Shown here: piece by piece, positions 357 through 43,994 of the stretch
How the letters are laid out: every line of letters begins with the position of its first letter
Numbering within the stretch: the first letter of the stretch is position 1
NCBI RefSeq assembly: GCF_964194025.1
Contig: NC_134480.1
Coordinates: 13,144,001 to 13,208,000 of the forward strand
Direction: 5' to 3'
Source: Convolutriloba macropyga
Taxonomy: Eukaryota
DNA length: 64,000 bases
Translations under genes and position numbers: made by a program
The notes under the pieces: model-generated
Seen by the model: the letters and a program-made list of their open reading frames with translations, nothing else
What the model was told of the DNA's origin: nothing
The model's database searches: none

Positions 357-3300
357 TCACACCACTTTTGGTCGTAACCTAATCGCTGTCAACCAGCGAG
401 TACATTTGAAAACAACCCCACCTCCCGATGCGTTGGCACCTTTGTTCAATCGTTTTCCAGCTGCTCGCTTCTTCGCAGCTGCACTCGGTGACCCACCAGC
501 TGTGGTATTTGGGGGTACAATAGATGCTCCGGGGTTCTGCTGTTGGTCTAACATCTCTGATGCTATCAGGGGAGGGGTCGAAGCACGCATTTGTCTCACT
601 ACTTTGATAGAGTCTTCTGGCAGGGGATCCAGGCCGAGCTCGAGACGTCTGCTGTTCTTCAATTCCTGTGCATGATCCAGGCCGCCCAATGATGACTGAA
701 AACAATCAACATCAAAACATTCAATGATGTGTCGTCGTTTCCAAAAATTTTCGAACTTCACAATTTTCTTACATTACAATTTGCTTTACATTACAATTCT
801 CTTTACAGCGGAGAAACACAAATTAATCTCCACAATTGAGTAGAAGAGAGCATAAATAATAATTCGGAAAAACAGTCATACATCTTTTCATTATCTTCGA
901 ATAAGTTAGTATCATAACATTATCATAAAATGTCCAAAGAAAGTTCTGAACGCCAAATGGTTGCGCAGTTTTCGTCTGAGAAGAACCCCTTTGATCACAT
1001 GTGACTTTTTCTAAAATACTCGATAACTTTCCTTTCTATTAGTTATGATACTGACCAGAATGATTTTCCACAGTAGCAACAGCGTCTTCTTTGTGGGAAT
1101 AGGAGAGCTCTTATCACTGGCAACATTGAGCACCAGTTGGAACAGGATCACAGCCGGTAGCTCCCCGTCTATGATGGGCTGACCCAATTCAGACACAAAC
1201 TGCTCTCTGAGGACTGCCTGTTCTTTCGTGTCTGCTAGGTCTGAGGTTCTCAGTACTTCTGTTATTGTGTACAGTACGCTCAGAATCATTCTGTAATATA
1301 ATATTATTCAATGTCTTTGCTACCTCTGATATAACTAAGTCAATTGGAAGATACTACAGGAATTCGGTAAATTTCAAAATTAAGTTTTTATTTTAATTTG
1401 AAAGTATTTGAAAGTCTACACTCAGTAAGCTCTCATCTTCAATTACTCGAAAACATTTATGAAAAACCTTTTTATTTTTTGATGAAAACGCTGAATCCTG
1501 ATAACAAGCTGCATAAACAAGCCTTTAAAAATTAAACTCAAGTTGTCTAAGTTAATTTTCTTCTCATTCCATTAATTTGCAACGTTAGTAAAATAAAGCA
1601 TTTGAAACCAAATTTTACTCAAAGAAAATAGATACATTGTAGTCAGATGTTATGAAAGCACCAAATTACTACAATATAACGGTACCTTAGCTCTATACAA
1701 TCTCCCAATGTTGCTGCTTGCTGGCTGTTTGGTTTTCTACCCCCGGCCCCTCCGGCATTGGGAGCCACAGTACTGGGGGCATAAGTGCTTCCGTAGGTAG
1801 CTCCTGCCACTGTTTTGTCTCCCTGGCGTGGTAAGTAGATGTCAACCTTGAGTTTGAGGGTGTCGAAGAGAGCAAGGAATATTCCCATTTTGTACAGGAG
1901 GAAACAGTTTTTCCTTGTCCAGGATATAAGCTCACTTTCGCTCTCGATTTCTGAGAAATTTCCTGAAATAGAACACAAAACAGTTTAATTTACCAGAACA
2001 AGAAATCATTTTCACACAAAGAGCCTCAAAACAATAGTAAAAACCAATCAGAATCTTTTGTCAATTGATTGCTTCATGAGGCTTGCAGCGACTATTAAGC
2101 TCTTGTCTATCTAGAATTTGGTGAACATTTTTTATCACCCCTGGACTTTACTACATTGTCTCTGTTCAAATGCTACACAATCCTCAACAGTTAAAAATTG
2201 AGACCTTAAGCAAATTTATGTATCTTATATACGTGCTGCTGAACGCACTTTTAGTTGTGCTGCAACTATATTTTACTGCTAAAAATCAACGTCAAGTTCA
2301 GAGCTTTCATTGAGAGTCGAAGACTTCACGACTTTATTATAACATTTTCACATTCCACGTCTGTTTAATTCCCCAGATGAGGAAAGATATAGAAATTCCC
2401 ACTGACCTTGACACAAATAGGCGAGTGCCCTCACAGCCCCAAGTCGTTTCTCCTCGGAGGCTACTTCCAAACAGTCCAACAGAACTAGGATGAGATTCTT
2501 TTGCTCCTTCTCGCTCAGTTTACTCCATTCTTTTTCTTTACCTTAAACAAAAACGCGGACTTACTCAAAAATAACAATAGGAGAGTTTGGGAATAGAATA
2601 GACAAAGTTTCGGGATTTTGAAAATAATTTTAATCGCTATCAGCGACAGTAGTAATAGGGTGAGCAAGTCTCCCCGGGGGGGGGGGGGGTGTAGACCCCA
2701 TGTATTAAGATAGGGTATAGGAGTAATTTTTGAGAGAGGGTCTACACTAATGTATTAAGATAGGGTATAGGTTACATGTATTAAGATAGGTTATAGCGGC
2801 GCCACGTATTAAGATTAGTAATAGCTGCCGCCACGTATTAGGATTAGTTATAGCGGCCGCCACGTATTAAGATTAGTTATAGCGGCCGCCACGTATTAAG
2901 ATTAGTTATAGCGGCCACCACGTATTAAGATTAGGAATATCCTCCGCAATGTATTAAGATTGGGGATAAATCTAGGGGTGTTCCAGGGGGTGAGTAGTAA
3001 GGCAGGAGCAGACCAGGGTGATTTTCCGGAGCCACTTGTCACGTGATTTTAGAGGTCATTTAGGGATTAGCAGGGAATTATACATGCAGCGCGCAGGGAA
3101 TTGCACAGTCAGCGCGTACGTACAGGCGGGGAATTATACATGCAGCGCGCAGGGAATTGTACAGTCAGCGCGTACGTACAGGCGGGGAATTGTACAAGCA
3201 CAGCAATGTATTAAGATTAGGTATAGCCGCCGCAATGTATTAAGATTAGGTATAGCCGCCGCAATGTATTAAGATTAGGTATAGCCGCCGCAATGTATTA

Positions 3301-6300
3301 AGATTAGGTATAGCCGCCGCAATGTATTAAGATTAGGTATAGCCGCCGCAATGTATTAAGATTAGGTATAGCCGCCGCAATGTATTAAGATTAGGTATAG
3401 CCGCCGCAATGTATTAAGATTAGGTATAGCCGCCGCAATGTATTAAGATTAGGTATAGCCGCCGCAATGTATTAAGATTAGGTATAGCCGCCGCAATGTA
3501 TTAAGATTAGGTATAGCCGCCGCAATGTATTAAGATTAGTTATAGCCGCCGCAATGTATTAAGATTAGGTATAGCCGCCGCAATGTATTAAGATTAGGTA
3601 TAGCCGCCGCAATGTATTAAGGTCAGTTATATCCACTAAAAATGAGAAAATTGAAAATTTTTAAAACAATGAATTATGAAGGTACAAAAAGACAGACACA
3701 GTATTAATCAAGTACATTATAAGTAATTTTAAACACAACAGAGAGCGCTCACAATACGAAAATTGATTCAATAAATTACAAGTTCAGGGGTACAGTATGA
3801 ATTCCATCAGATAACACTTTTCGTTTAGGATAAAAATATGAGAGTCCTTTCTTTGTTTGTTCATAGGTAGCGACGCAGTGGTTGATTGTCCGAAATCCTC
3901 TATTTGTAGATGTTAAATTGATGATTTCTTCCATCACTCGCCCATATTTTTCCAATGGTCCATCTCCGGTCTCTTCCAATGTTCGTTTGTTCAGTCCTTT
4001 GCTGCTGAATTTGTACTTATCCGATTTGGCATCGTAGCAACAATATGTTTTGCTACAGAGACAAATCATTTCAGGACATCTAAATTCTTCCTTGAACAGA
4101 CCTGGTTCACGCTTATCGTGCTTTTTATGTTTATCACAACAAGTTCTAGGGAAGAAATTTTGTACAGCATCAGCTTTGAAAGAATCATCACAATCGTGTT
4201 CCCTCAGAGTTTCCCAATCTGCTTTTTTAGATGGACGAATGCAATCGTACAAATTATCGTGCGCTAGAGCTAAGTATAAGGAGTCAGTGTCCATTTCTAA
4301 CTCTTCGAACGTGTCGACATCGCAAAATTTATCAAAAAAATTGTAATAAAGCTCCAACATACGTAATTTTGCGTACTGAAGTATAAAAAAGCCGACTATT
4401 ATCGGTTCACGGTCATCAATTTTTGATTTTACAAGTTCAACTTCGTATAGTTCTTTTGACACACTGTTAAGTCTCTTAAACAATTTCCCGTTGATAGCTT
4501 TGTGTGTCTGCTTCTGTCCATGATTTGGTAACCATAGGAACTATTCCCTAACAATTTCATTGTTTCTGCTACAATGCTTGATTCAGGATTTTCATCTCCA
4601 ACTCTTCTAGCATCAACAACCGATTGGACAAAATTGTTGAAGCATTTTTTGGGTGTGTACTGAACGAAGCGATAAATTTTGGTGCATTTTAGCCCAAGAC
4701 TAAGGTAAAAATTGAGTAATGGTGTTATGACTGTTCCATTCTCCAACTTGAAGCTTGAAATTAACATGCGTTGCGGTTGCTTGAGTAAATCGTTATCAAT
4801 TGCATAATCCCTCATATAATCACCAATATCTGCTCGACTAACATTAAAGTTTTTAAAGATTGGTGGAAAGTTCGAGAACTTGTATTTCAACCCATCTGGA
4901 ACTTCGAGATCACACTGAACGTAACCAAATAGTTTATCTTCTCTTATCTTTGTAAGTAGAGATTCTTGAGTCAGAGGTAGCTTGAATGGGAAATTGTTTC
5001 TCACGTGATTTTTTACAGATTCATCACCTTTGACAGTTTCCCACCAGTTACATTCCCATATCTCAACAACTTTATATCCTTTGTTTCGCAAATAGTCTCG
5101 TCTTAGTTCATCGTATTCCCGTTTCTTTAATCCTTTCTGAGTCTCTTCCTCTGACATGCTTGCTCTTGCTTCCTGACATGCACAAAAGTGAAAGTAACAA
5201 CCCATTGCTTCAAAAATAGTTTTACAGTGAGCACAAAATCCGTCTACATTAAAACAATCAATCTTTTTCTGAGTTCCAGTTGTGTAGTAGCTTTCAATAG
5301 TGCAGTTAGGACGTTGAGATTGTAGGTACGACATAACCATGTTCTCAAATTTCCTCGATTTATTTTGTCTAGCTTTAAACTTCTGAGAGTCTGAATCAAA
5401 CTCCCATCTAGTGTAAAGCCCAGTGGGCATTTCTTGACACATTGAGAAGGGGTAAAGTTGACTGGCGTCTATACCCACAATTGATTTGCAAATGTTTTCT
5501 GTGTTTCGAATGTAGGTTTGATCCACAATTGCTTTTCTAGTAAACACAATAGAAGGACCACCGGTCATATCTTCGCGTATTTTATCATGTAAATCTTTGT
5601 CTGCTTCAACGAAAGGATAGAATTTGCTATTAGTTGATTTGTGTAGACAAATATTTGCTAAATTAGGTAGTGTGCAACCCAGTTTTAACATATCAATCCC
5701 TTTGTTATGATAGAATTCCATCATTTTCTGCATCGCTTCTAGTGTCGGGACAACATCTTTGTTATTATACCACCTGACAAAGTCTTGAAAAATTGTCATT
5801 TGTTCGTGCTCCCACACACTTTCCAGGTAATTGTAGTTGTCGAATCCCGAGGGGGGCACTACCTTCAACCTAAGTTTTTTCAGAGCCTCCTGTTGGGAAA
5901 GTCCACTATTCAACAATTTTGTGAAATCCGTAAATTCTTTTTCCAAGGGATTGTGATCTCTCAACTTACTAAAGAAACATTCGTAAGGGGGTAGGAAAGT
6001 TACATCCAATTTGTTTGGTGAGCCGAACCATTCATAAGGGAAAAATCCTTTGGTCTCATTTGTCTTGTAAGCTTTGACGAACGAATCTAGTGATGTTGCT
6101 CCACCAAGAAAGTTTAGAATATCGAGAAACTGAACATCGCCAAATTTAAAGGATACAAAATGAATAGCTTTTTTAATAAACGTTGGTTGAATATCGCGCT
6201 CGTGAATGAGGTAGGGTAGTAAATAAGACTTGATAAGATTCAGATCATATTTCCCGCTGTTGAATCCAAATACAGGTAAAATGCTGACATAACGTTCAAA

Positions 6301-9300
6301 ATGTTGTTGTAGTTCGAGAAGTTGATTTTTCTGAATTTGGAGGAATTGAGTCGACATATCAATTTTTTCTTCTTCGATATATTGAAATTCAAACATTGGA
6401 GTACTCTCATCTTTCCTTCCATTTAGCTTCTGGAAAACAGAACTTACTCTGTTTTTAATTGCATTTTCAATTGAGGAAAATTTTTGCAACATTTCTGCTT
6501 TACTTCTGCTAGCTAGTTCTTTCAATGCTTCAACAAAAGATACAATCAGTGTCTTGGGTTCTCTGTTGCAAAGGAAAATAGGTTCTTGTAATAAATTAGA
6601 GGAAATTGACACAGATATTGGTTCATGTTTTCCTATCCAAGTAGTTGTATTGGTATCTTTTAGTTCATTAGATGGAACGCAGATTGATTCGAAGTCAAAT
6701 ACAGCCAAGTTTTTGAACAGTTTTTGTTCTTCCTCATATCCAATTCCAAAACCGTCAAGTTTATCGAACAAAGTTTCTCTCAAAGTGTAAACACTCTTCG
6801 GATAAATGTGCTGTATCCTATCTTTACAAGATTTCACGTGACGGTGGAAATTACCAGCACGCTTAATAAAGGTATCACAATTAGGACAGCGGAATCGTTT
6901 GAAAAACGTGTTGATATCATCAACATAGCAAATGTGGTTGTTGTAGCGCAGTAGATTAATGTTGTTCTCGTACATCTTAATACTTCTTCTGGCAAGTTCA
7001 CCTACAAAATCCCCGTCCTCAATGTCAATGTCATAAATGAAAATGTTGTGTTTTATAGCATTTTCAACAAACACAAGGTGATCCATTGACACTCCTCTAA
7101 AGTTAATTGCGTCATGACAAGACTCGTGGAGAAAGTCACTGAACAACTTAGCTGCGTTTGTTTCCAGCTCAGCTGATCCATACAAGTGAACAGCCACAGC
7201 TCTAAACAAGCAAAGGTAGTCCTTGTAGGTTTTTCCGTATCCATTCGTAACGAGACAATTTACATCGTTTCTCCTCAACAACTGTTCAGGTATAACAGCA
7301 TCTAAACATCCCATTGGGATATTGTTGAGAAGAGCACAGAAAACAGTTACATTCGTAGTTAGTGCATACCACCATTTTGTGTTTGCCCTTTCTTGAGCAC
7401 AAGTCTCAATCAAATCCAATTTCTCTACTCTATCCTGAAGTGAGACTAAGTCTCCCTTAGAACAAAGTAAATGAGACTTCTCAAAGAAGGTGTTGTTCTC
7501 ATGAGCATAAAAGTATCGGTATTCGTCTGTGTCAACATTTCGTAAAATAAATCCCAGGGATAAATTTATTTTTGCAGCACAGTTAAGCTTTTCAAACACT
7601 TCCTTCAGTTTTTCATTAATTTCGCTGGGATCAAGTCTCGACAATTTAAAATTGAATACTCTATGTCTCCCATTCTCCATCTCAGTATTGTCAAAGAAGT
7701 GTTGACAGGCACTAAGTTCCTGCTGTAACTGTTCGTTTTTCCTATCCAATTCTTCCGATTCTAGTACTTCTTTCAAGCTTTCGCTGGATTTGGTTCCAAC
7801 TTTGGTTGATGTTCCGTGTTTCCGTCTCTTATGTTGTTGAAGAGAATAAAAACTTGGAAATTCCTCCAAGCATATAGTGCACACTGTACTAAGCTTCTTT
7901 TCTTGAGGAGCGTGATGCTTAGCAAGGTGGTAGTTCAAGTCCTCTTTCCTCTTTGTGTAGAAATGTGGACACTTAGGACATTTTAAAGTCCCACTATCAC
8001 ACGATTTTTTGTGTCGAGCCATTTGCTGCTTGACAACCATTTTCTCGCACTTTGAGCATTTGACAGGTAGATTTCTATCAAGAGAAGGCATTGTATTGTT
8101 GTGATCCAAAATAAATTGAAGAAACTTTAAGTAAATTGCCGAGCAACTGTATCTGATAACAAAGTGAGAATGAATACAATTTTTGGTTTTTTAGTTAGAA
8201 TTGCTTTTATGACTAATTATTTCCATATAAGGAAATGACGTAATTTCTATTTTTAGTAACATTACGCAATACGAAAGTTCAAGAACTTCCTACGAAGCAG
8301 TCACAGTGTTACATTATACATTGTATTTAAATCCAGAAAACATCAAAAATGTGTAACCTTATTCCTTGGAGGAAAATCGGAAATCTTAAGTTATATTTAT
8401 TTGTCATATTGTTGATTTGTGTTACTTTTTTACAAAACAATACTATTCATCCCAAAACAGACTTCTTAACAAAATCTATCTGTCAGATGTTTGCTCACTT
8501 AGAGAATACAAATATTATTGTAAACAAACTAATTTTGTAATTTCATCGATAAAACACTAAATGTGTTTTTACAATAATATTAAAACATTAGAGAAGAAAA
8601 CTCCTACTTTAATTGAAGATAACTTATATACAATTGACGTTAACGTGATTATATTACAAACTACAAACCAATCAAATTTTAGTATTAGGAAACTTGTTGT
8701 AAAAGTTAATGATATCGTTTTGCTTATCTCATTCTCTCTTTTAACATTTTTTTATTTTAATAGATTAATACGTGAAATTTTACTCATTTGTGAAACATGT
8801 TGATCAAAAACCACTTACAAATATTGGAGAAGATTTACAAGAGAAAAGAAGGTATACCTGATTCATACAAAATTGACGAAATTGATGTAGATTTATACTT
8901 TTTTTACAATTTTTTGGACATTTTCACAAAATCCAGCAGAATAATCCGATTTAGTAAAGGACTTGAGTATGCAACGTTCTCTATTAAAAAATTTCAATAT
9001 GAGGAGTTTATTGCGAAACAGTCTTTCGATTTATCCTCAGAATTGCATGTAAGCAAATACGAATTGTTGTTCAATTTGAACTCCGTTCCCGATATATTGG
9101 AACAGAACAGAAATATTTCACAAACAAACTTTGTTCCTCTCCCAGAACCAATAACAATAACTTCTTCACTACAGAGTGCTTTGTACTTCCATTATTACAA
9201 CGACTACAATGCAGTGGGAGTACTGATCAGGTTCGGAATTCGTTTACCTAACGCATATATACAGAAATTTGATTCCAAAAATGGAACATTTTCCGAGATT

Positions 9301-12300
9301 GATCTGAAATTTGACGAATTGGAAAAAATTTATCAAAGCTTGACTTTTTTGGTAAATTATGTCACTTCATTTCAACTTAAATAGACCATTTTAGGTAAAA
9401 GCATAGTCGGAAACCTGTATGTATCCTTCACTTCCTACCTTGTTAGAAAATTTTACTCAAAATTGGATTTGAATTTCAGTTCGTCCAGAAATTTCAAGCT
9501 AAACCTCCCTTTTTCTCATAAAATCTTCCATCTTTGGTTACTGTTGTCTGATTGGACAGAGCACACTATATATAGAGGTTGTTGATTTTGACATTATCAT
9601 TTGATCCAACTTCTCTGAAAACATCATCACTACTTTCTCACATTATACTAACTACTCCTCAACATTTTATCCTGCTATCGAGCTCCAACATTCACTTTCT
9701 TTTTGTTTAAAAATACTTACTTTAGTTCTAACTTTTGTTTAAATCTAATTTATATATCCTGTTCCCTTCCTAAAAAGGAAATTTGCTGCTTTATAACTTT
9801 CTCTCCACTGATTGCTTTTATCACGTTCTCGACAAGAATCTTTTCATCCATTCTCATCACTTTCTAACAAAAACCTCTTCTATCATTTATTCCAAAATGG
9901 AGTTCACCGTTCAAAATAATAACCTTCTGTACTCATTTTCTTTTACTGAGGATATTGCTCGGATAGGAGTTCGAGATTTATCAAACGGACTGTATGAGTC
10001 TCTGATCACTTTACCCATTACTGTGTGGCACATTATTGAGCACCAGCAACAACAGTTTGATACATATCATCAGGGACAGGTCCCAATCACAGAGAATCAA
10101 CTCGGAACTCACGCGATGGGACACGAAGTTGCTGTTGTCAGTGGACACCACTATCCTCACGTTAATGGATCTGATTTTCCTACCAACTACGTAGCTGGAA
10201 ATATTCAGTACACATTTCCTTGGGAGGAAGGGCAAATTCCAAACAGTTGGTTCACTACACCGGATGTAGGTGAGGTATCAGGCCCGGAGGTGGAAAATAA
10301 TCTTCTCCAAATAGCTTCAAGAGCTCATAGAAGAGAACATAGCGAGTTGAGTATTGATACTAGTACCACCACGTCATTTAACGATCTGGAAAACTTTGAT
10401 CCAGCGCAGTACTATGGATCTACTGACATGTCAACTACACCTTCGATGACAACCCCATCCATTGAGGAAGGAACAGCTCACAACCCTATCTTTTTGAGTG
10501 ATGTACCTAATATCCCAGTCACTGTTCAACCAACTCAACTACCTGGTAGAATTGAGCGACAAAGAGGTTTCGGTAATGAAATTCAGAACTTACCAGAATA
10601 TGTTATTGAAACTCTTTTTGAATGATTTCTATGTTCAATTTTGTAAACTATTTTGTATTTGTTCGTAAAAATAATAAAGTTTCTGAATACCTTTTGGGTG
10701 TTTCGTATTAAATTTACATTTTCAATTTTATAATTTTTTTATAGTTTTCCAGAATCAAAGATTAACACGAAAGGTTACTTGATAATTTAGGTACTTGGTT
10801 ATTATTGAAAATTTGTTTTTCGACAATTAAGAAAAATACCGAATTTAATTTTGATATTTAAGAAAATTGTCGAATTTATTTTCGATATTTAACAAAAAAT
10901 GTCGAGAAAAAATTCGATTTTTAAGAAAAAATTACTGTTACAAATCCGATTTTTAAGCTGCAAGAACAGATTCAAAACTTAAAAATTTTAAAAATTTTAA
11001 AAATCATTTTTAAAATTATTAAAATTTATGTTTTTTGCTTAAAATCATACCGTAAAACTAAGAAAAATGAGAAAAAATTGCACATTTTGCACGCACAGTT
11101 TGGTAACATTTTTGATTTTTAATGAAAAATCTGAGGTTCTATTTTTGACTTTTAACAAAAAATGTTGTGTGAAAATTCGACATTTAACAAACAAATCGAC
11201 TTCAAATTTCGACTTTTAGAATATACACTAATAATAAAACATTTTAGTACAAACACTTTATTACTTTCTAACTTCAAAGTACAACATGGGGTTATCAATT
11301 ATTCCATGACCATCTAGTAAACAATCAGCAATTTTTATTAATTCACTCTCATACTTTGAGTTCTTAAGTGACTGAATTTGGTCGAAGAAGGATGATCTCA
11401 ATGTTTGTGTGCTTGCATTTCTTTGCTCAGCTCTCAGTAGATGTCTCTTGAACTTTTTTCTACTCAATCTCTTCTTAGACACGCTGGGTAGTTTTTCAAC
11501 AAATTTGTTTTCCGAATTATGTTGTACCGCTCTCTTCAATTGGGTGAAAACAAGTCCTGCTTCTTCGTTTGTGTGACCAAAAAACTGATGTTTATATAAG
11601 GTGTATAAGCAGTCCACTGTCTGATATTGAAAAGATAAATCATCCAATTTTTGGAGTAATTCATTAATGGAAGATGAAATGAGAATTATGTGATAAGAAC
11701 AATTTTTCAGAGGACAAAAAGTGTAATTGTGAGACGCAACAGAGTATTCACTAGTAAGCAAGTAAGGTTTATAATCCTTAACTGATACGCAATTGAACAA
11801 GGCTTTCTCACAAAATTTTTTATAAAAGTCAGGTAAAACTTGACACATAACTGCTGCCATTCTGTAACCAAAGTGATTTTGGAGTGATTCTTTTAAACTA
11901 CCGTATAAGGAAATAACGCAATTCAGTTCAAATGCAGCGAAAATTTCATTTGAAAAATGACACAGTTCAAGAGACAGCAACTCAAAAAAATCCGTTGTTT
12001 TACTTGTTCTAAATATTTCAAACACTATTACTCGCTAATGCAACACAGACGTGCTAAACATCAAGATAAATATGCTGCTCTAGTTCAAATGTTTGCTCAA
12101 CTTAAAATTTCTGACTAAGTTTCCTTATAAGGAATTTTTGCAAAATGACGCAATTGAACTTTCCATATTTGGAAATGAAAGAAGGATAATGACATCATTA
12201 CCAAATAAAGGTGATCGGAAACAATAGAGGAAGTAAAATTACAAGTCAAATCATTCAATTAATTTCTATCTGTCACATTAAGTTGATAAAATGTCTCTCT

Positions 12301-15300
12301 CTCTAAAGTCTCTCCGTTTTACTCGAGTGCTCCGTCTATGTTTACCGATTCTCAACCTAAAACTGGAACTTATTCGGTTCCATTTTATATAGACTTTGGT
12401 TCTAACCTAAAAAGATTTGGGAGATTTACTGTGTCCCAGATTTTTAAAAACGGACAAAATTATTCCGAACCAACTTTCCAAGTCTTCAAAAAAGATAATT
12501 CTGGAACATTTGAGAAGTACCAACAACTTCGAATATGAGATTACGAATTCAAGAAATTCTGTTTCCTCAAGAACAATATCCTGGATGGGGAGTTGGAACT
12601 GAGTGAGCACCCGACTCAATTTGATAAGAACCCATGTATGGAGGATGTGCTGCAACGATGTCACAAAGTCAGAGAGGTCAGCATAGGACGAAATCGACGA
12701 ATATATGTGACTTTCATTCAATACGTTCAGGAGAATCCAGCCTCCATTTATGTGCAGATTCGGCTCTTTTGTCGCAAGGAAAACGAGTTCAAGCAGGTGA
12801 CTTATGTCAGCTACACCTTGGACGAGTTCAAGGAACTGATTCAAAATTTGAATGACTTTTCTAACATTGAACAATGTACATTTCAATAATAATTGTTGTG
12901 TGATTTTGTAATATGTCTTTGTCTTCTCTACAATAAATTTTTCATTTTAAAAATCTTTGATCTGAGAATGAGTTGGGATATTGGTTGCTCAAGAAACATT
13001 TTTTTGAGTCTCAGAGACAAGTCAAAGGTTTTTCACGTTAGACTTCATTCCGAACTTAAAAGATATTCCTATACTGTTCTTGAAGCTCAAAATTTTCCCA
13101 AATTAGAAAATTTGGACATAGAGTCCCAAATTTCAGAATTTAAGTGGGTTATTCACAACGGATTACGCAGAACAAGTCTTATATATCGTTCAGATAAACA
13201 ACAAGTTACCATTTCACAACATCGTTGGAACGGATATCAGTGGAGTTTTCTGACAAATATTGAATTAAAAAAAGAAGAGTACGAGAACTTACTAGAGCAT
13301 CTCCCTACACTTTTATCTTATATTGAAAAGTTTAAGAAAACTTGCATTGACATGGATGAAGGAACGCAAAGTTGATGGATATTGTCATTCTTGTCAACAT
13401 ATTCAATTGCTACGGAAGCATCCTTTCAATGTTTCCCGAAAATGAAAAACGCAAAAACTGTTGTTTAGCGGCCTGTAAAATTTGGGACGAAAATATAAAT
13501 TTGGAGGAAATTAACCAAAAATTTCCTCACGGAGGACTTATTGGTTATAGAAATTCCTTTTTAGATTTTTTCTTTGCTAGATTGAAAGTTTTTCGATTAC
13601 ATGCTATACTACACGATTCTGCTGGAGCGGTTAAAGCAACTACAAACAAGGGACCAGGATACTGTAACATGTTACCAAATTTTCCAAGCTCATGTTTCTT
13701 GGGACATTTAACTGGGTTAATCTTTTGTGTCTTTATTAAATTTTATCATCCTCAAATTTTCAAAATGCTAGACTGCTAATCGTTTTTGTAATAATTCAAC
13801 CTAGAAAAAAGAATGTCTCTCGTTGTGTTTGATATTGAGTGCTTGGAAGGGAAAATTGTCAAGGAGTTGGGTGTTTTCAAGGATGGAATTGTATTGGGAT
13901 ACAGTTTCCTCCCACCCAAAGACTATAAACCTACTTTTCAAGCAAAATGGAACACTAAAAATTTACATGGGATTAATTGGAACAATGGAAAACTGGAATA
14001 CACTGAGTTGTCATCAATCATTCACCAACATTGTTCATCTACAACAGAATACTTTGCAAAAGGGTTAGAGAAGTGTAATCTTCTCTCAAATTACTTGTGT
14101 AAAGATGTGGAGAATCTAGATGAACTTGGTTGTCCAAAAGTTTCCAAACTTCTCAATAACTCGGATACTGACTGGGATTGTAGCAATTATCCGTATCGAC
14201 ACAAAAAGACATTTCACTGTGCAGAGAAGAAAGCTTATGCTTACGGAACTTGGACTCTGGATTTTTTGATAACGTATAACATTTGTAATTTCTATTTGTA
14301 TTTGTGATCGTTTTGTAATTTATTATTTTTATTTTACTACTTTTGAAATCAGAGAGAAGTTGCATTCCCAGTTCAAAAAATTGATTTTCCCTTAAAAATA
14401 AGGTATAAATGACCGAGCATACAGATAACGGTTTAAATTTAGGTAATTTTGTCTTTGATGATAATAACCAGGAACGACAATCGTGGTAATGTTTTGGACA
14501 GACTTGTAATAGATCTGTGGTGATTTTTTTGGCCCAATTTTTTGTTATTTTGTTAATATTAGCGTGCTGTAAAGTAAGAATAACTCTTGCCGAAACCTGT
14601 GAAGAAACAACAGTTTGGATTGCTATCTTATCTAGTACAGTCGGTTATATTTTACCTTCTCCTAAACTATGAACAAAATAATCTCCACTAAGGAACGCAT
14701 TTTTATTTCATTGGTGGGACCAAGCGGGTCTGGAAAATCTCATCTTATCCATGATTGGCTAATTATTGGAACTTTTCAACCCGATTTTGATAAAATTTAC
14801 TATTTTTATCAACATTATCAATCACTTTACGGTCTAATGTCCAAAAACATTAAGAACATTCAATTTATTCAAGGAGTTGACTTTGAGTTCATTCAGAGTC
14901 TACCCAATAATGGAACAAAGTATTTGCTGATTTTTGATGATTCTCGTGAAGAAATCTTAAGCTCGAAAGAATTTGTTAAAATCGCGACAGCTGGAAGACA
15001 CAAAGGTCTTAGTACAATATATATAAAGCATAATCTTTTTCATCAGAGTAGGTTGGGAAGAGATATTGAGTTACAAAATACTCATATAGTTTTATTCAAG
15101 TCTCCTAGAGATGTTCTCCAGATAAATACTCTTAGTCAACAGCTCGGGTTAGGATCACAATTAAAAGATTGGTATACAAAAGCTACTTCAATCCCGTATG
15201 GTCATTTACTCATTGATCTAACTCCGAAAACAGTCGACTCTCTTCGATTTTGCAGAAACAGTGGTTCTATTCCCACTATTTTTTTCCCTAAAACGAAACA

Positions 15301-18300
15301 AGAGATTACTTTTTTGAACGATGAACACACAACATCTCTCTACGCTGATAACGTTCCAAACGTATTCCCAGAACTTCAAGAAATCGTTCCTAAGAAATTG
15401 TCCAAAAGATTTCATTCAGTATCTAAACGAATGCATAGTAAACCTTCTCGGGGGACAACTACAGGAAATACAAAAACAAGGCGTAATAAAGTACAGAGAC
15501 GAAATTCATCAACTCGTGCTAAAAAGAACCGGAATAAATAAAAGAAGAGCAATTTTAAGTTCACGAAAAGGAATAGAGCTCATATCAATTTTGACACCAT
15601 CTACCATTAATCGATTGTCTTGAAATGGAACAGTTTGTTTTGATTCCTCAACACCTTTACGAACAAAAATTCAAATTAGAAGTTAAAAAGTTGGACACTT
15701 TTGAGCAGAAACCAGTTTCTGTCCCAACACATTTGAACCCTAATTACAAGGAAATCAGCAACAAAACCAGATCTTTAAAGAACGAATCAATTGTAGATCA
15801 AATTTTGAATTCACCGCGAGTCAAGCTATCTCTCAACGACACAATTTTATTAGATGGAAGAGATACAGAAGTAGCTTTTGCAGATTTTATTTTTGCATTA
15901 AAAAGAAAGAACGTTGATTTTCCCGACATATATTACACAATACTTGATGCTACCGGAATAAATCCGCAAAAAGTAATAAACAAAGATGCCAAAAGCAAAG
16001 ACAGAGGGAGCTGGATTCCTTTCAAAATCTGAAAAAGCCAAGCTACAAAGGCTGTATAGAGATGGAAAAGCCGCATATGGATCAATTAAAAATCTACAAA
16101 AGGCAAGTGGGTTATCCAAAAAAAAGTTGCCTACTTTCTACACAGTAAAGATTCTTACACAAAGTATCGTCATGCAACACGACATTTCAAAAGATTACCA
16201 GCATTTGCTAAGCGAATCAATGAGATCTGGTGTCTCGATCTAGCTTTTATGGATAAATTATCGGATACTAATAATGGAGTGAAGTATTTATTAGTATGTG
16301 CTGACATCTTTTCTCGCTTTGTTCGTGTGCAACCAATGAAGTCAAAGTACTCTACCGATGCAGTTGTAGCTTTCAAAAAAATGTTGCGTAAAAAAAGTAT
16401 GTCCGCGAAAGTATGGGTTGACCAGGGAACAGAGTATAGTGGTGAGTTTCGAAAGTTTTGTATGGACAAGAAATTTAAAATTTACTCTACTAGAAGTGAA
16501 ACGAAAGCTGCTGTAGCAGAACGAGCCATTAAATCCCTGAAAAACATTATTTATCGCTATATGGAAGAAAATGGTGACAAATACATGAGAAAAATGGATT
16601 CCTTTGTCAAAACTATGAACACAAGAGTTAATCGCTCAACAGGTAAAGCTCCAAAAAATGTAACAAACAAAGACTTTTTGTCAATTCTTTACAGAAACCC
16701 AATTAACCAATATAAACGACCACGTTTTGAAGTGGGTGAAAATGTTCGTATATCAAAAAAAGATATTCCATTCAGAAAAGGTTATAAATCACAGTTCACA
16801 AATGAAATAATCAAAATTGCTAAAGCTGCTGCTTTTAAACCGCCAACCTATAACCTTTGTGGAGAACAAGGTGATGAAATTCTAGGTAAATTTTATGAAC
16901 AAGAGCTTTCAAAGTGTATTATTTAAAGATGAGTTCTTTCACTGTTGAGTTGGTTTCCAATGCGTCGTTTGATTGTTAACCAAACAATACACTAAGTTCT
17001 TTCACGAATTTTCTACCTGAACAAATTAATCTTGATGGAGAATGGGAGGTAGCGATAAGAGAACTGTCGTACCCTTCCTTGTACCAAAACATAACAGAGG
17101 GTAAATTCTTCTATCTAGATGAAGCAACACCAGATACAAAACCATCGGATTATTACACACTTGATCCAGGTCTATAACCCTCGATCTCTGATATTGTCAA
17201 TGAAATGAATAGAAAAATTCAGGAACGTGAAAAATATGAAAAAACGCCCATCAAATTACACGTTAACAAAATTACACAGCGAATTTCTTTGAGTCTTCCA
17301 AATCAGAACTCTTTACTTGTCATTTTTAGTGCCGATCTTTGTCATGTCTTTGGATGCGAAGAAGCTGTTTATGGTATGGGTAATTTCATGAGTGGTGGTG
17401 GTCCACATTTTCCCAAGTTTCCTTATGACATTGTACGAATACACACCTTAATGATATATAGTGATATTGTTGAATACAATATTGTGGGTGATACAAAAGC
17501 TGCTCTTTTACGATGCATTCCGTTTATATCAAAAGTTGAGAATGGAGATATCATCTCAACGGGACAATGCACGAATTATCAAAATTTTCCAAACTTACAA
17601 TTTAAAAAAATTCTAAAAAACTCATTCCACAGCATAAAACTCGAGCTCCGGGACTCTTATGGTGAAAAAGTTCCTTTCAACTCTGTTGGTGTGACAAGAG
17701 CGGTACTAATGTTTAGAAAAACTTCTGATAATCATTTTTAGATTTAAAGTTGTAGAAAATGGTTGCTGATAGTGATTTACCGTATTTTCGTGGTTATTCA
17801 AGACAGAGGGGAAGAGGATTCGGAGCGTTAGCACAACAATTGGGAGGACAGCTATTCCATTCTTGAGGAGATATGTTGTCCCAGCAGCAAAAAGAGTTGG
17901 TGCTGATTTGCTTGATATAGCTGCACCAGAAATTGGAAATGTTCTAACTGGAAAGAAAAAATTCAAATCTGTGGCTGCAGATGTTGGAAAGAAAACATTA
18001 CGTAAACAGCTAGGTGGTGGAAAAATTAGGAAACGGCGCATAATTCGAAGAATTACCCCAAAAACCAGTCGACGTCGTCGAACTAGAAGCGATATTTTTT
18101 CTAATCTAAAATGAATACTAGATCAACAAACGATAGCAACTTTCGTTATGGTCACTTTACGAACTCTTGCTTGGAGATTTTTGACAAAATTCCTGTTTTG
18201 GAACCAATTGAATCTTCTCACGTTCAAGAAGTTTATCCCAGTACTTCATTGGATGAAAGCAGCATTGAGTTCGAGTTTGAAACAGATAGAACCATATATC

Positions 18301-21300
18301 TTGATATGAGAGATATCCACGTTCAAATCAAAGTTGGATTACAAAAGGGAAGATTGTTTGATGACTTTATGAAAAAAGACGAGCATGGAAAAGCAGATAT
18401 GGGAATGTCTTTCACAGATGATGATTCACATTATCTAACTCACGTCAACAATTTATTGCACTCGCTCTTCTCCAACTGTGAGGTGTATCTGAACAATCAA
18501 CAGGTTTACAACTCAAATGGTCTCTATGGACACAAAGCTTTAATTTCCAACGAATTTAACGCTTCCACAAGAAATAATGAAGGTATTTTGGCTTGTCATG
18601 GATATGAATTTGAAAAAGAACCCAGCGATTTTGAGAAAAACCCTTTTATAGATCGAGAGGAAGAACTTTTGCTGAAAAATGGAACTACTTATTACGGTAA
18701 ATTAGCAATTGATTTGTTCCAATGTGAAAAGTTACTGCTTCCAAATACAAAAGTTAGACTGAAATTGATTCGTGCAAGACCCAATTTTTACATGATCTCC
18801 TACAATCCTTACGTCTCCCTTAAAGTTCTTGACTGTTCCCTGTTTACAAGACGTGTTGTTGTTAACGAAGTGTATCACCAGACTATCAAATATCAATTAA
18901 CTCATCAACCTGCTTGTTACAACTTTATGGAAACAATTGCACGCACATTTATTATTCCTTCAGGACAGAACCAGTTTATTCAGGAAAATGTTTTTAACAA
19001 TGCTCCAATCAGAAGAGTAGCTATTGCGATGAACACAAATTCAGCATTCACAGGACATTTTCAAGAAAATCCTTTCCATTATCAGAAATTTGGTTTACGA
19101 GAACTAAGAATTGTTCGAGGAGGTAGAGCTATAGAATCAGTTGATACAACCAATGACTGTAGGGAATATGTAACAAGAATGAAAGCAATGAATTTTAACG
19201 AAAAGATTCCCGCGTTACCACATAATCTATTTCAGAACCATTACGTGCTTGTATTTGATCTCACTTCACTTCAAGATGCTGGAGAAAGTATTCATTATCC
19301 TGAGCTCAGCGGTGAAAGTATCCGATTAGAAATGTTTTTCGACCGCCCGCTAAGAAGCGTGACAGAATTAATTGTTCTAGGAGAAAGGATGTCCACTGTT
19401 AAAATTGATCAGTTCGGAACGGTTGCTAAAAAGGTCTGAAGATTTTTGCGTTAACGAAAATTTTTTCATATTTTTTTCAGTTTTTTATGGGTTTTACATT
19501 GGAACATTTCTGCATTGGAACATTTTTGGGTTATATATTATCGTCACCCAGTTGCCATTCTCTTCACCAAATAATTTCTTAAAATGGACGTTAACTGGGG
19601 GCGAACTAATTTAAACTTTTTTGTTTACGTTCCTCTCCTAATTTTTCTGGTACTTTTTATAATTATTTTATTCTACCCCAAATCCCATAACAATTCTGTT
19701 GACAAAATTAAAAAGTCAAGCAACCTTTTATTAGAGCAAGGTAAAAAGTCCAATGATTGTTGCTTTTATGAAGAGAATGAGTCTTTTCAGCTGGACTGTA
19801 CAGTTAGAAATCCGTGTGTTAATGGTACTTGCGAAATAAAGCAGAGAAAAATTGTTTGTCATGGATAACACTTCCCTGAGACAGATTATTGAACGAATCC
19901 CAGAACTCAAATACCGCTATATTGGATCGTTTCCAGCAGATTGTGTTCCAAGGCTACCCACATTCAGTTTTGCTATCATCAACACTTCTCCGAGCAGTGA
20001 AGCTGGAGAGCATTGGATAATGATTGCTCGACTCAATCGAACTTATTACTATGCTGATTCTTTGGCTCGTCTAATCACAAAATACAAATTTTTGAATAAA
20101 AAGTATCAGAAAATGATACAACAACCAGTTCAGAAAACTGATAATTTGTGTGGATTTTACACAATATTTGCAGCATTTCAAATATTTAAATTTTTTCAAA
20201 CAAAACTGAACAAGGTTCATGACGTTCATGTTTTAAACTTTATAAGTAATTATATGTGAATTAGATAAATTTAATGTAAAATAAGTCGAAGTGTAATAAA
20301 GTCGACAGTAATTTTTTTTCTAAATTCCTTAATTCTTCGTTAGTTACTCAAATTTTTGTTGTCGACTTTATTAACTACTCGGCTAAATGTACTTTAATAC
20401 TCTTTTCTTTTGTACTATCATCATGTAAACGTTTGATTATATTTGTATTTGCATGTGCTTAATTTGTACTGTGTCTGTTATTTTGTACTTATTAATTCAA
20501 TTTTTTTTCTTTTATTTAACTTTTTTCCATGTTATGAGCGCGTAAAAGTCCACTAGTACTGTGACAATGCCAGATCAGCAAGAGGTAGTTTCGATCTACC
20601 GACCTCTGGGTTATGAGCCCAGCACGCTTTCGCTGCGCCATCTTGCTATTTAGGGTCGGCTATACCTAATCTTAATACATTGCGGCGGCTATACCTAATC
20701 TTAATACATTGCGGCAGCTATACCTAATCTTAATACATTGCGGCGGCTATACCTAATCTTAATACATTGCGGCGGCTATACCTAGTCTTAATACATTGCG
20801 GCGGCTATACCTAATCTTAATACATTGCGGCGGCTATACCTAATCTTAATACATTGCCGCGGCTATACCTAATCTTAATACATTGCTGTGGTTAAACCAA
20901 AAAATGTTGAAATTTACTGCGAGGGAAATTATCCGTTAATGCGCGCTACCTGTACAATTCCCCGCCTGTACGTACGCACTGACTGTACAATTCCCTGCGC
21001 GCTGCATGTATAATTCCCTGCCTGTACGTACGCGCTGACTGCAATTACCTGCGCGCTGCATGTATAATTCCCTGCTAATCCCTAAATGACCTCTAAAATC
21101 ACGTGACAAGTGGCTCCGGAAAATCACCCTGGTCTGCTCCTGCCTTACTACTCACCCCCTGGAACACCCCTAGATTTATCCCCAATCTTAATACATTGCG
21201 GAGGATATTCCTAATCTTAATACGTGGCGGCCGCTATAACTAATCTTAATAAGTGGCGGCCGCTATAACTAATCTTAATACGTGGCGGCCGCTATAACTA

Positions 21301-24300
21301 ATCTTAATACGTGACGGCCGCTATAACTAATCTTAATACGTGGCGGCCGCTATAACTAATCTTAATACGTGGCGGCCGCTATAACTAATCTTAATACGTG
21401 GCGGCCGCTATTACTAATCTTAATACGTGGCGCCGCTATAACCTATCTTAATACATGTAACCTATACCCTATCTTAATACATTAGTGTAGACCCTCTCTC
21501 AAAAATTACTCCTATACCCTATCTTAATACATGGGGTCTACACACCCCCCCCCCCCCCCCCCCAACCCCCGAACCCCCCCCCCCCCCCCCCGGGGAGACT
21601 TGCTCACCCTATTACTACTAGCGACTCCCTATCTCCAATTGAATTGAATTCAAATTTAAAACATAACCGACAAACGTCGGGCGAATTACTCTCAAACAAC
21701 CGGCGAGAAGTTGGCTTCGTCAGTAGCTAGCCACGGTTTAGTGAGGCTAGCTTTAGCTTGTTTGTTTCGACTCTTCGACTTTTAGTTTTCTAACCTTGTT
21801 AGTAAATAAATCAAATAAAAAACTGATTTTGCAAAATTTAAAAAGCTTCGAGATTTCTCAGTGAATATGTTAAAAACTATTTGTTGTCTCAGGCGTTATG
21901 TCAAGTAGTCCATCTGCAAGACCTGAAAAGCTTCGTTGGCCAGTAATGATCGTTAAACTCAGAAAAGGACCAAAAATTTCAAAAATTTTAGAAACAATTG
22001 CAAATTTTAACAAAATCGTGCTAAAAAGTCGTGATATTAATATCTTCCGAACAATTTCATTGTCACAATAGACTATCCAGTATCCCTATTTCAAGCTTTA
22101 AATCTTTGCTCATATAGATCCATAAACTTGGAACATTAATTTTCCGAAAAATTGAAAATTAAATTTTATCAAAATATTGCTTAAGCTGGAGTCATTGAAA
22201 TATTAATCACCATTCCATTAATTCTAAAAACTATGAGGCAGCTTATCATCAAACCTTTGATGAGGACCCTAGGACCCTGGTGCCCGAAAATATGATAAGT
22301 TCAAAAAGTTTCAATAAAAACTTAAAAATATTTACAAATATTGCAAAAATAGCAAATATTTTTTAAAAATTGCTGATATTAAAATCTCGAATAACATACC
22401 ATTACATCTAGAAGCTATGCATTAAACTATAATAAAACCCTAGAGGAGATTATGCGGCTCTTGAGACTGAAGAAACACAAAAAATGACCAAAATTTTAAA
22501 GAACTTGAAAAAAAATGGCAAGTTGCATAAAAAAAACTGCTAAAATTTGTTATAACAAAAGTTGAAAACTAATGCACAAAAAAAATTTTCCAGTAACTTA
22601 TTACCAAACGCTAACGGAGATTTTCTGTTGGGCTGAAAAAAAGAATGACAATAAGTGTAAAAAAATTGCAAATTTGTAAAGAAATGCTAAAATTCGTGAC
22701 GTTCAAATCTTGAGAACATTCCATTTTCTTTAGAACCTATACAGTAATTATTGTAAAATTCTAGAGGAGGTTCTTCGTCTCTTGAGGCTGACGAAACCTA
22801 AAAAACCGACAAACTTTCAAAAAATTTGAAAAAAAAATGCAAGTTTTATCAAAAAAAATCGCTAAAATTAGTCATATTAAAAAATTGAAAGCTATTCCAT
22901 GACAAAAATTTTTTTAAGTAACTTATTATCAAACTCTTAAGGACGTTTTCTGGCGCCTGCGTCTGGAAAAACGCCAATAATGAAAAATGTCAAAAAAAAA
23001 TTGAAAAAAATTGCAAGTGTTGTAAAAAAAATTGCTAAAATTCGTTTTGTTAAAATGTTGAAACCATTCCACTACCACTAGAAACTATGCAGTAAATTGT
23101 TATAAAACTCTAGCGGAGGTTCCTTGACACCTAGGGCTGAAAGAACTCAAAAACGAAAAAATTTTCAAAAAGCTTGAAAATTGTGAAAATTAGTATAAAA
23201 TTGTGGGTTGTTTTTAGCGATGGTTTGTTCGAACGCAGCTACGGGGGAGGGAGGGGGCGCGCAACAGTGGGGGGAATAGCGCGGTGGGGGCAATAGTGTG
23301 GGTGTCTTCAACCTCTAAGAACCACCCTTCACACCATTACTATAAGTCTCCAAAACAGTTTGAGCAGAAAAGCTCTAAGAGCACTTAATGCCCGCTGGGC
23401 GCTACCTGTTATCACGTTTTCGAGAACGAAAAGTCAAACATACCCGGCAGATTGCCGGAAAAAAAGCCCCCGTTGATTCCAATAAGCATGATTGGGATTG
23501 AAAGAATAGAAGATATTGAAAAAAAGATTTTTGTACGAAAACATTTTTTAAGTCCGATTTATTTTGATGGCATTTCGTAGTTGAACATACTTCTGTTTCT
23601 TAGAGAGAGGCTACAGGGGCTAATATCAATACCACTAAGCATTGGAGATGGTAACTAAGACTTATAGGAACGACGTTCAAATAGCGGGCATCTAAAATTG
23701 GGATTTATGGGTTTATCCCGTTTCTATTTCTGACTTCAATTTTTTATTCTGACTCTTTTCATTTTGAACTGCTTTGCTGAGCAACTGATGTTCAAATTAA
23801 CTTTTAGCAGAATGAGAGAAGAGAGAAACTAGCCTAGAGAAGTCAAAAAGATATCACGCAAAATGTTGAAAAAGCGGCAAAATGAGGTAAAGCGAAACAT
23901 TTTTTTATTCGACGAAGTAAAAAAAAATAGGAGCGCTATAATAGCCGGCTGAGAAGATGAGGGCGGCTATTGAAAAATGTCAGACAAAAATCGGTCAAGC
24001 GAAAAATCGCATAAAAAAAAACCGACAGAACAAATATACCCGGGAGATTGCCGGAAAATAGCCGCCGTTGATTCCAATAAGCATGATTGCGATTGAACGA
24101 ATAGAAGATATTGAAAAAAAAAAGATTTTTGTACAAAAAAATTTTTTAAGTCCGATTTATTTTGATGGCATTTCGTAGTTGAACATACTTCTGTTTCTTA
24201 GAGAGAGGCTACAGGGGCTAATATCAATACCACTAAGCATTGGAGATGGTAACTAAGACTTATAGGAACGACGTTTAAATAGCGGGCATCTAAAATTGGG

Positions 24301-35763: not shown

Positions 35764-36129
35764 TAAAACTATTGCAAGATTTTTACGGATTGCATTTAAA
35801 ACTATTGCAAGATTTTTACGGATTGCATTTAAAACTATTGCAAGATTTTTACGGATTGCATTTAAAACTATTGCAAGATTTTTACGGATTGCATTTAAAA
35901 CTATTGCAAGATTTTTACGGATTGCATTTAAAACTATTGCAAGATTTTTACGGATTGCATTTAAAACTATTGCAAGATTTTTACGGATTGCATTTAAAAC
36001 TATTGCAAGATTTTTACGGATTGCATTTAAAACTATTGCAAGATTTTTACGGATTGCATTTAAAACTATTGCAAGATTTTTACGGATTGCATTTAAAACT
36101 ATTGCAAGATTTTTACGGATTGCATTTAA
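35764..36129. repeat. Perfect 33-bp minisatellite x11 (TAAAACTATTGCAAGATTTTTACGGATTGCATT)
   Basis: Direct reading; produces the KLLQDFYGLHL x11 ORF. Confidence 0.97.
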
Positions 36130-37156
36130 TAGTTTTCATTGATTTCCTGATTCCATAAACAAAAAATGAGCATGATCATCTAGTTATTACTTATGGGGTC
36201 ATCTTGACAAACCTGAAACCAAATATTTATAGAGCAAGTGAAAAAATAAAAAGGCAAAAATAGTCAGCTGGAAAGCAAGAGCACTTTCTGATCATAATTC
36301 CGTGACTACGTCGATTCTTCCAAATTCTAAACCATATTTGAATTTTCTTTGAGTCGTACAATTTGAAAAAATTGTGGTAGCATACTCCAGCAGTTTCGAA
36401 GTTAGTAAGTAACAGCCTTAGAGCATTGAGGCGATCCGCTTCTCTTCAAACATAAACAGAACATAACCGACCACAGTCGGGCAAATTGGTCTTATACGAC
36501 TGCCGAGCGGTTGGCTTCAATATGTTAAGATCGCTATCGACAAACGAAACTAATCTACAGTTACACTCACACAAACCAACAATAACTTTACTCTGAAGTC
36601 AAATTTATTCTGAACAATCGGTCGGAGACCAGTGAAAAAAATGGTGCGAGTCAAAGAGTGGCAACTTTTTTTCGGCGTTTTTGGTCCCGTCCTAACAGAT
36701 GTATGAACACAGACCATACTGGTCTTTCAACAAAAAAATATCTCATTCTGCCCATAATCTGCTGATGATCAAAAAGAGTTTTATTTCAATCCACATTTCC
36801 ACACTTTTTACGAGCTCATCCGCAGCTAGCATAAATTGCTTGCATCGATTAAAAAAACATGCAACAACATTACATCTTGACTCATTGCATTGGAGAATTA
36901 ATAGTACTGTTAAATGACACGACTACGAATATAAATTTTAAAAAAAATATGGCTCTCAGCGCCTACCATGTCACTATTTGCAGCTCATTTGCCTAGAAAT
37001 TACTTCTCATGTCTAGCAAATGGACGAAAGAGAAGACCGAAAATAGATTTAATTCCCATTTGTGAAGATTAATTGCTTTCAAGATATCAAATTAGAACTA
37101 TTGAAAAGAACTTCACAAGTAAAAACTTAGTTGCTATCATTTATAATAATTCATAT

Positions 37157-43405: not shown

Positions 43406-43679
43406 GTTTACATATCAAAAACCTGAAAAACAACAAATGTTGCAACAGGAAAAGGTATGACAATCCATAGAACAAAGTTCAGCCAATTCATTATGATCTC
43501 AACATGCTGCTTCACTATCTTTAAATTTATGAAATTAGCTGCTATTTGACTTCTTGTACCCATTTCTCAAAAAAAAGTGAGGCGTAAATTCAATTTAAGT
43601 GAACTGAAAAATACTGATGCAGAATATATCCCACGTAACATTCAGTTCGGCAGAAATCAAACATCCGGCTGAAAATAAA

Positions 43680-43994
43680 TCAGTACATGATCATCTGTCC
43701 CTTCTTCTTCTTGTCTCCACCCAGCTCGAAGTGCATGCAACGCTTCAGTGGTTTCTGCATGTACTTCTTACACTTCATGCACTGAAGCTTGAGCACAATC
43801 TTTTTGGTTGTTTTAGCCTTTTTTCGGAACACAGGCTTCGTTTGTCCACCAAATCCTCTCTGCTTCCTGTCATATCTCCTCTTTCCCTGCGCCAGCAAAG
43901 AATCCTTGCCCTTTTTGTATTGGGTGACTTTGAAGCTCTGGTGAACTTTGCACGCCGGGCAAAAAGTTTTACGAGATTTGGGCACATTTACCAT
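43680..43994 (-). CDS. RPL36A: 60S ribosomal protein eL42 (L36a/L44), copy A, KRCMH variant
   Basis: [12 protein letters not shown]...[37 protein letters not shown]; true start is the MVNV ATG at 43994. Confidence 0.96.

Follow-up and report, generated by a model that had tools for sequence, protein, structure and literature searches.

A gene for an initiator-type tRNA-Met is carried as fixed cargo, in hundreds of copies, by a Polinton lineage of the genome from which the window (the whole analysed stretch of 64,000 nucleotides) was taken. The gene was found in three placements, namely at the right end facing inward (subfamily A, the arrangement of the window copy), at the right end facing outward (subfamily B) and at the left end facing inward (subfamily C'); one subfamily has lost it. 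The RNA is probably under selection in the replicating element and not in the integrated copies. With a rough probability of 50%, the gene would be transcribed by Pol III into a variant initiator tRNA that gives the element a modest and dispensable gain in translation initiation.

The window element is a Polinton, and its features are collated in Table 1. The Pfam matches to Pox_A32, rve and Peptidase_C5 were each slightly below the curated cut-off. The capsid model (pLDDT 68) was compared by Foldseek and returned the PBCV-1 capsid (E 6e-14) and the mavirus MCP (E 2.5e-13); searches with the sequences against PDB identified neither the capsid nor PolB. The PolB-like gene gave a weak PHROG DNA polymerase match (E 0.036) and no match to PF03175 in the Pfam profile search; polymerase motifs, under the names that we take to apply to them, are visible in it. 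An 85-aa ORF (15986-16243) upstream of the rve ORF may be the separated N-terminal part of the integrase. Two further ORFs of the element (13375-13779 and 13813-14307) were without credible Pfam match and have relatives in distant Polintons; to our eye they resemble, presumably and in resemblance only, a PLA2-like HD motif and a DEDD-type nuclease. An inverted repeat at 20294-20306 and 20361-20373, with AATAAA on each strand, is kept in subfamilies A, B and C and may be a paired poly(A) signal. Elsewhere in the window, an intron-free ORF for a mitochondrial-type pyruvate dehydrogenase E1 beta (37157-38275, minus strand), a duplicated 2.28-kb segment (42773-46335) whose two ORFs had no Pfam match, a 33-bp tandem array (35764-36145) and a 1.4-kb tandem repeat (59597-64000) were recorded.

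Table 1. Features of the Polinton and of its tRNA gene, in window positions.
Feature	Position	Strand	Remarks
Whole Polinton	2648-21619		18,972 bp; AGTAGT at start, ACTACT at end; 6-bp TSD AGCGAC on both sides
Left TIR	2648..3621		starts AGTAGT; TSD AGCGAC at 2642-2647; no tRNA inside
Right TIR	20671..21619		29-bp repeat arrays; ends ACTACT; TSD AGCGAC at 21620-21625
PolB-like gene, protein-primed type	3776..8091	-	two ORFs in the window copy, 4429-8091 and 3776-4360
A32-like packaging ATPase	14669..15541	+	Pfam Pox_A32, E 8e-5
rve integrase core ORF	16249..16926	+	Pfam rve, E 1.6e-7
Double jelly-roll major capsid protein	18111..19439	+	Foldseek on predicted structure
Adenovirus-type cysteine protease	19861..20259	+	Pfam Peptidase_C5, E 0.002; tRNA slot starts 316 bp after
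Initiator-type tRNA-Met(CAT) gene	20576..20647	-	72 nt; CCA not encoded
Internal A box region	20630..20640	-	tRNA positions 8-19; private A19 falls inside
Internal B box region	20587..20597	-	tRNA positions 52-62
3' trailer	20548..20575	-	28 nt; 89% identity between subfamilies A and C'
T4, candidate Pol III terminator	20544..20547	-	+29 to +32; missing from subfamily C'
Short motif	20521..20548		common to subfamilies A and B, same orientation
TATTAA	20672..20677	-	-30 to -25; last hexamer within the right TIR; repeats every 29 bp

A tRNA-Met(CAT) at 20575-20648 (minus strand) was the sole tRNA called by ARAGORN in the window, and Rfam RF00005 was matched over its full model at 20576-20647 (56.7 bits, E 1.4e-9); neither program gave a second tRNA over the whole window, the left TIR included. 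The observations of an earlier note on this DNA, that an initiator-type tRNA-Met lies inside a TSD-bounded Polinton, that a T4 follows downstream, that TATTAA stands at -30 to -25 and that the left TIR is without such a gene, were all borne out. Its distance of about 10 bp from the TIR edge applies to the end of a partial repeat unit; strict TIR identity ends 23 bp before +1 (at 20671). The RNA has A1:U72, the pairs G29:C41, G30:C40 and G31:C39, the T-loop AUCGAAA and G73. The states A5:U68, U33 and G73 belong to the subfamily, and A19 in the D loop, by which G18-G19 is broken, is private to the window copy, G being found at 29 of 30 loci. Because A19 was seen at only one of these 30 loci, the window copy is, as judged from its sequence, a decayed member of the family; its 72-mer is matched in full by one other copy. 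The D-loop GA and G73 had been read earlier as decay or as a signal: the former is private decay, and the latter is the state of the young subfamily. Similarly, where both acceptor and T stem had been set apart from the vertebrate tRNAi, A5:U68 in the acceptor is element-specific, and the T stem GGTAG/CTACC is the host tRNAi state. The change from C33 of the host genes to U33 had been overlooked.

The status of the gene as cargo was established from copies chosen in two ways. A genome search with the tRNA gave 40 scored matches at 99-100% identity, and the protease side, the tRNA and the TIR were present at all 30 loci fetched. Subfamily-A copies picked by their protease, not by their tRNA, contained the full gene in 26 of 28 cases, with deletions in the other two; the gene is not absent from the other family copies, a possibility the earlier note had raised against itself. 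Polinton flanks were found around every A5-type tRNA gene in five partly overlapping sets (29/29, 26/26, 17/17, 30/30 and 32/32) and around none of the 14 host-type tRNAi genes examined. The host tRNAi genes comprise 32 exact matches with unrelated flanks (G5 in 31, C5 in one, A5 in none). Identity with a host gene and recent passive capture, which had also been considered, do not agree with these flanks, and a tRNA-derived SINE was ruled out, every element-type gene examined being situated in Polinton flanks. Exact-pattern counts gave at least 100 genes of young A (132 less at most 32 host genes), 96 of B and 57 of the pyrimidine-20 type. The element-borne genes thus total 253 or more, some eight times the 32 host genes; all these counts are minimum values, and some genes may be counted twice through unplaced contigs. 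For annotation this means that Polintons bear no fewer than 253 of the roughly 285 initiator-type genes matched by exact pattern, and that tRNA counts in this genome mostly count mobile elements. At one locus (L061, G000:C7:7430000-7433500), host tRNAi genes stand in a tandem array with a period of about 705 bp.

The pair A1:U72, A60 and the three anticodon-stem G-C pairs 29:41, 30:40 and 31:39 are marks of eukaryotic initiator tRNAs. The anticodon CAU, A1:U72, A54 and A60 were kept in all six aligned sequences (host, A, window, C', B and L159, a distant relative described below), and the three G-C pairs are present in the window copy, A, B and C', L159 having A29:U41. Differences from host tRNAi were found at seven sites in B, four in A and five in C', all of them fold-neutral. 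The four sites in young A are A5:U68 (host G5:C68), U33 (C33) and G73 (A73). U33 is shared by the window copy, A, C' and L159; B has the C33 of the host. Young A has G73 as its discriminator, as does the window copy, A73 is found in B, in C' and in part of the older A copies, and C73 in L159; the host tRNAi genes inspected have A73. Older A copies vary at positions 20 and 73. B keeps every initiator mark checked except A20. The change from G5:C68 to A5:U68 is compensatory and absent from all 32 host genes, an element-specific change of the kind the earlier note had proposed to look for; it could be the allele of a former host. In the literature, A54 in the T loop is a feature of initiator tRNA-Met and C33 a metazoan Met-i signature (PMC9023262), and A73 is listed as a eukaryotic Met determinant (PMC9976931, Table 1 and section 6). 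The C33 of the host tRNAi genes suggests that the host, a eukaryote by its mitochondrial-type pyruvate dehydrogenase gene, is an animal.

Twelve copies at 84-85% protease identity were inspected as sisters. Four carry the gene in the same slot (subfamily B), and eight are without it at the right end. In subfamily B the gene starts 316 bp after the protease, faces outward and has non-TIR DNA upstream. Its tRNA keeps A5:U68, C33 and A73 and adds G20, G10:C25, A47 and A57; a T-run follows at +8 after a different, 7-nt trailer. The motif at 20521..20548 serves both arrangements, its A-run being the T4 of the inward gene (A) and its T-run the terminator of the outward gene (B); a simple inversion via the acceptor arms was rejected as the relation between A and B, the shared terminator motif lying on opposite sides of the gene. 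There are 96 exact matches to the B gene, the fetched genes were identical (30/30), and 40 of 40 scored matches were identical over 181 bp, so that subfamily B is very young. Among the eight copies negative at the right end, four have polB homology and no left-end tRNA, two are polB-less and represent C', and two have left ends that were not reached; one further copy with polB homology and both TIRs was also without tRNA. Because five sister copies with polB homology have a tRNA at neither end, the gene is dispensable for the Polinton.

The C' elements lack polB; their gene faces inward and is set back from the left end by about 300 bp in the C5 copy or by a greater distance. Whichever end it occupies and whichever way it faces, the tRNA of the Polintons in this genome always lies within about 300 bp of the inner edge of a TIR. 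A supposed family D was given up, since it represents the left end of derivatives of subfamily C that lack polB. Five foldback derivatives (L269-L275, L281-L284; G000 C8, C12, C3867, C6, C9) consist of two inverted left arms with a tRNA at both ends and little or no core gene content; two have mutated anticodons and two have matching TSDs. Two capsid types that differ at 46% of four-fold sites (L276-L278 and L285-L286) share a common protease-tRNA-TIR end module, a pattern that points to an exchange of modules among subfamilies. In nine copies belonging to more distant families, whose capsids are 44-48% identical, no tRNA was found in the stretches covered, which for eight of them did not include a located right terminus; relaxed ARAGORN calls inside distant families of the genome were noise.

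Relatives were also sought in other sources. In runs labelled organisms B, C and D, contigs were found that span the join of tRNA and Polinton flank (presence only), one such run containing a B-type joint and another a B-type trailer; run X9 gave only short pieces, none of which bridged tRNA and flank. Searches of IMG/VR gave no close relatives by single capsid or exact tRNA core, and a capsid alignment led to one distant locus there. From metagenomes and IMG/VR, 81 mostly short capsid-bearing contigs were collected, 35 of which were scanned with Rfam; a tRNA was found in two of the 35 (L159 and L192). L159 (JAAUXY010163060.1) is the closest (capsid 37% identical, with the gene order unchanged: integrase, minor capsid, capsid, protease) and has an inward, initiator-like tRNA-Met 1.16 kb after the protease, with A29:U41, U33, A57 and C73. 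The motif CCTTATATGG, which we take to resemble a CArG or TATA box, occurs at L159:5080-5090 and 5667-5676, near a small ORF of the minus strand and again 32 bp upstream of the tRNA gene. In L192 (capsid 26% identical), a tRNA-Leu(TAA) at 5011-5097 (minus strand, 53 bits, T-run behind) lies between ATPase and integrase. Relaxed ARAGORN calls on L169, L196, L210 and L213 were below the Rfam thresholds and were discarded. The IMG/VR loci L151-L157 and L324-L337 carry eukaryotic initiator-type tRNA-Met genes, some on contigs labelled GVMAG; L324 has three Met-CAT genes in a row.

The selection on the RNA was assessed from its folding and its rate of change. Every one of the 126 stem cells is paired across the six natural sequences, and compensatory pairs were seen at 5:68 and 29:41; the shuffle control for this figure is not a probability. 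Stem-breaking or anticodon changes account for none of the 14 lineage states relative to host and for 13 of 21 distinct post-insertion changes (Fisher P=0.0002), the latter taken from 19 of 20 young copies picked by protease (one was dropped, its gene being deleted). The tRNA is 90% identical between A and B and 95% between A and C', as compared with 76% and 69% for the flanks and 60% for a shuffled control; the capsid gene differs at 24-45% of four-fold sites between A and its sisters. Over the 50 positions that belong to neither the A box nor the B box, five differences were counted for A-B (P=0.011) and two for A-C' (P=2e-6), and the first 28 trailer bases differ at two positions between A and C' (P=0.003). 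After insertion, the tRNA has decayed by 2.0% and the trailer by 1.5%. Because the integrated tRNA decays like its trailer, the selection would fall on the element while it replicates; domestication of integrated copies by the host was rejected on the same ground. The C' block is colinear with the right end of A over 385 bp, and its far part is somewhat nearer to C (74% vs 68%). The tRNA block may accordingly have been moved later between subfamilies, in which case the flank comparison would overstate its age.

The earlier note had cast the TIR as the upstream promoter of the tRNA gene. That the last TIR repeat supplies a needed upstream TATA element is improbable. Among 80 distinct A-like copies, 68 have TATTAA at -30, C' retains a derived repeat unit at the same spacing, and host tRNAi genes are AT-rich at -32 to -24, L159 having TTATAT at -30. 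Against these points, the gene of subfamily B has non-TIR DNA upstream; the hexamer at -30 in C' is TATTAA in 0 of 17 cases and TTTTAA in 11; the 33 bases upstream of the C' gene are conserved at 26 positions, not above the flank (P=0.15); and TATTAA recurs every 29 bp, with a chance of about 7 in 29 of falling within 3 bp of -30. The family has kept the internal A and B boxes intact; their positions in Table 1 follow the layout of type-2 Pol III promoters. The TIR is at most an incidental AT-rich upstream platform in subfamily A, and as a requirement it is not supported.

In the preferred reading, the Polinton lineage holds a variant host initiator tRNA-Met gene as fixed cargo near its terminal repeat. 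Pol III would likely transcribe this gene from the internal boxes, the transcript would be processed, provided with CCA and charged, and extra initiator tRNA would likely be supplied while the element replicates at high copy. Such a supply is favoured because CAU, A1:U72, A54 and A60 are kept throughout and B has nearly the complete set of initiator marks. A yeast phenotype that is due to limiting ternary complex is suppressed by additional copies of the tRNAi gene (available part of PMC5404910); in yeast, tRNAi overexpression can also activate Gcn2 and lower translation (available part of PMC6097839). The reading is weakened by this last effect of excess tRNAi, by the loss of A73 in young A and L159 and by the dispensability of the gene; U33 in place of C33 in A, C' and L159, the loss of one of the three G-C pairs in L159 and the left-end version on polB-less derivatives, without a near T4, also speak against it, as do the lack of a tRNA in the covered stretches of the nine more distant copies and the yield of only two tRNAs from 35 distant contigs.

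Some of these deviations would be expected of an RNA that is made and folded but left uncharged, as a decoy or regulator in the manner of the MHV68 vtRNAs/TMERs, with MetRS, eIF2, modifying enzymes or tRNA-cutting defence nucleases as proposed targets, or with release of a trailer RNA as its purpose. This is unlikely. The three discriminator states of the viral genes (A, G and C, against host A73), the recurrence of U33, non-A20 and G-C pair loss, the conserved trailer of A and C' and the finding that MHV68 vtRNAs are not aminoacylated (available part of PMC4337559) are in its favour, but CAU and A1:U72 are kept in all lineages, with B retaining nearly all marks, and the trailers contain no significant hairpin, that of B being different and of 7 nt only. 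A trailer unit of miRNA or TMER type was rejected, the A, C' and L159 trailers folding no better than shuffles (z +0.43, +0.67 and -1.41). It is quite improbable that the gene is passive cargo, captured perhaps repeatedly or from earlier hosts, with its apparent conservation due to selected host genes and recent moves. The patchy presence, the varying placement, the possibly mosaic C' block, the spread of sister copies without the gene, and the facts that L159 is a single contig and that the comparison was limited to host alleles of one species are compatible with passive carriage; independent neutral drift, by contrast, would break stems, as post-insertion changes do, and the differences from host are all fold-neutral, A5 is in none of the host genes, and the same tRNA type recurs in a second lineage with a capsid only 37% identical. 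A role of the gene as DNA, namely as a site for TFIIIC/Pol III by which silencing would be kept off the element or the TIR would be demarcated, is very improbable and, as a DNA-only role, fits worst of the earlier suggestions. It would account for the constant position of the gene at about 300 bp or less from the TIR inner edge and for C' being without a near terminator, but not for the constraint beyond the A and B boxes, the compensatory pairs in acceptor and anticodon stems or the neutral decay of integrated copies.

Returning to the supply of a charged initiator, this tRNA is the cargo of the eIF2 step, which animal cells shut down under stress and infection, and the retention of a copy of it, probably selected as an RNA, by a small integrating DNA virus suggests translation as a process on which animal Polintons act. 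A bolder version, in which they keep initiation going through host shut-off or tRNA-directed defence by means of an own tRNAi retuned at positions 20, 33 and 73, is rather unlikely. If true, it would be a tRNA-based counterpart of adenovirus VA RNA across a broad animal Polinton lineage, and the integrated copies, which make up most initiator-type tRNA genes here, may also feed the host initiator pool.

An animal Polinton with an initiator tRNA was not described in the literature covered, outside of which lay subscription journals, Repbase, bioRxiv supplements and the supplementary maps of PMC8502044. The earlier note did not count tRNA genes as standard Polinton cargo; more precedent exists in the available parts of PMC12220804 and PMC6905037. 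PLV and virophage genomes gave 558 Rfam tRNA hits, and tRNA-Met has three entries in Table S12, two of them from Polarella elements and one from a Chlorella virophage (PMC12220804); among clade-14 virophage tRNAs, 57% are Met-CAT (PMC6905037). Codon compensation and the countering of tRNA depletion were proposed as their roles (both sources). The protist PLVs and virophages belong to the same wider group as the Polinton described here, and they too are small DNA viruses that integrate and carry tRNA genes. In the parts available, however, their Met genes are not split into initiator and elongator, whereas here the tRNA is of initiator type, the host is likely an animal, selection was tested against host genes, and the element-borne genes outnumber those of the host about 8 to 1.

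According to the available part of PMC8502044, the beta class of adintovirus-type elements has a divergent PolB without PF03175 match. The window element is likely of this Beta adintovirus type, sharing with such Mavericks/Polintons the TIRs, a 6-bp TSD, rve integrase, ATPase, protease and double jelly-roll capsid, and having a PolB-like gene that likewise gave no PF03175 match; the sole mention of tRNA in the main text of that source is a legend for MELD viruses with other replicases. The MHV68 vtRNAs/TMERs are likewise tRNA-shaped Pol III genes with 3' trailers near the genome end of an animal DNA virus, but they are divergent and uncharged and carry miRNA hairpins (available part of PMC4337559), whereas the Polinton tRNA is 90-94% identical to host tRNAi. 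The large-virus contigs of IMG/VR also contain Met-CAT genes, most with an A54 T-loop (4 of 15 labelled GVMAG). A capsid relative was found on none of these 15 loci and several lie in multi-tRNA clusters; the Polinton, in contrast, bears a single tRNA gene, for whose transcription it would depend on the nuclear Pol III of the host. Adenovirus VA RNA, a decoy for PKR with a length of about 160 nt that is proposed to protect initiation, is likewise Pol III cargo of an animal DNA virus whose genome is bounded by inverted repeats and replicated by protein priming. The Rfam scan of the window gave no match to VA RNA, and the Polinton gene differs from it in being a cloverleaf with a CAU anticodon. 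tRNA cargo itself is known from PLVs and virophages; what the present lineage likely adds to these systems is an initiator-type tRNA as family-wide, selected cargo of a Polinton whose host is likely an animal.
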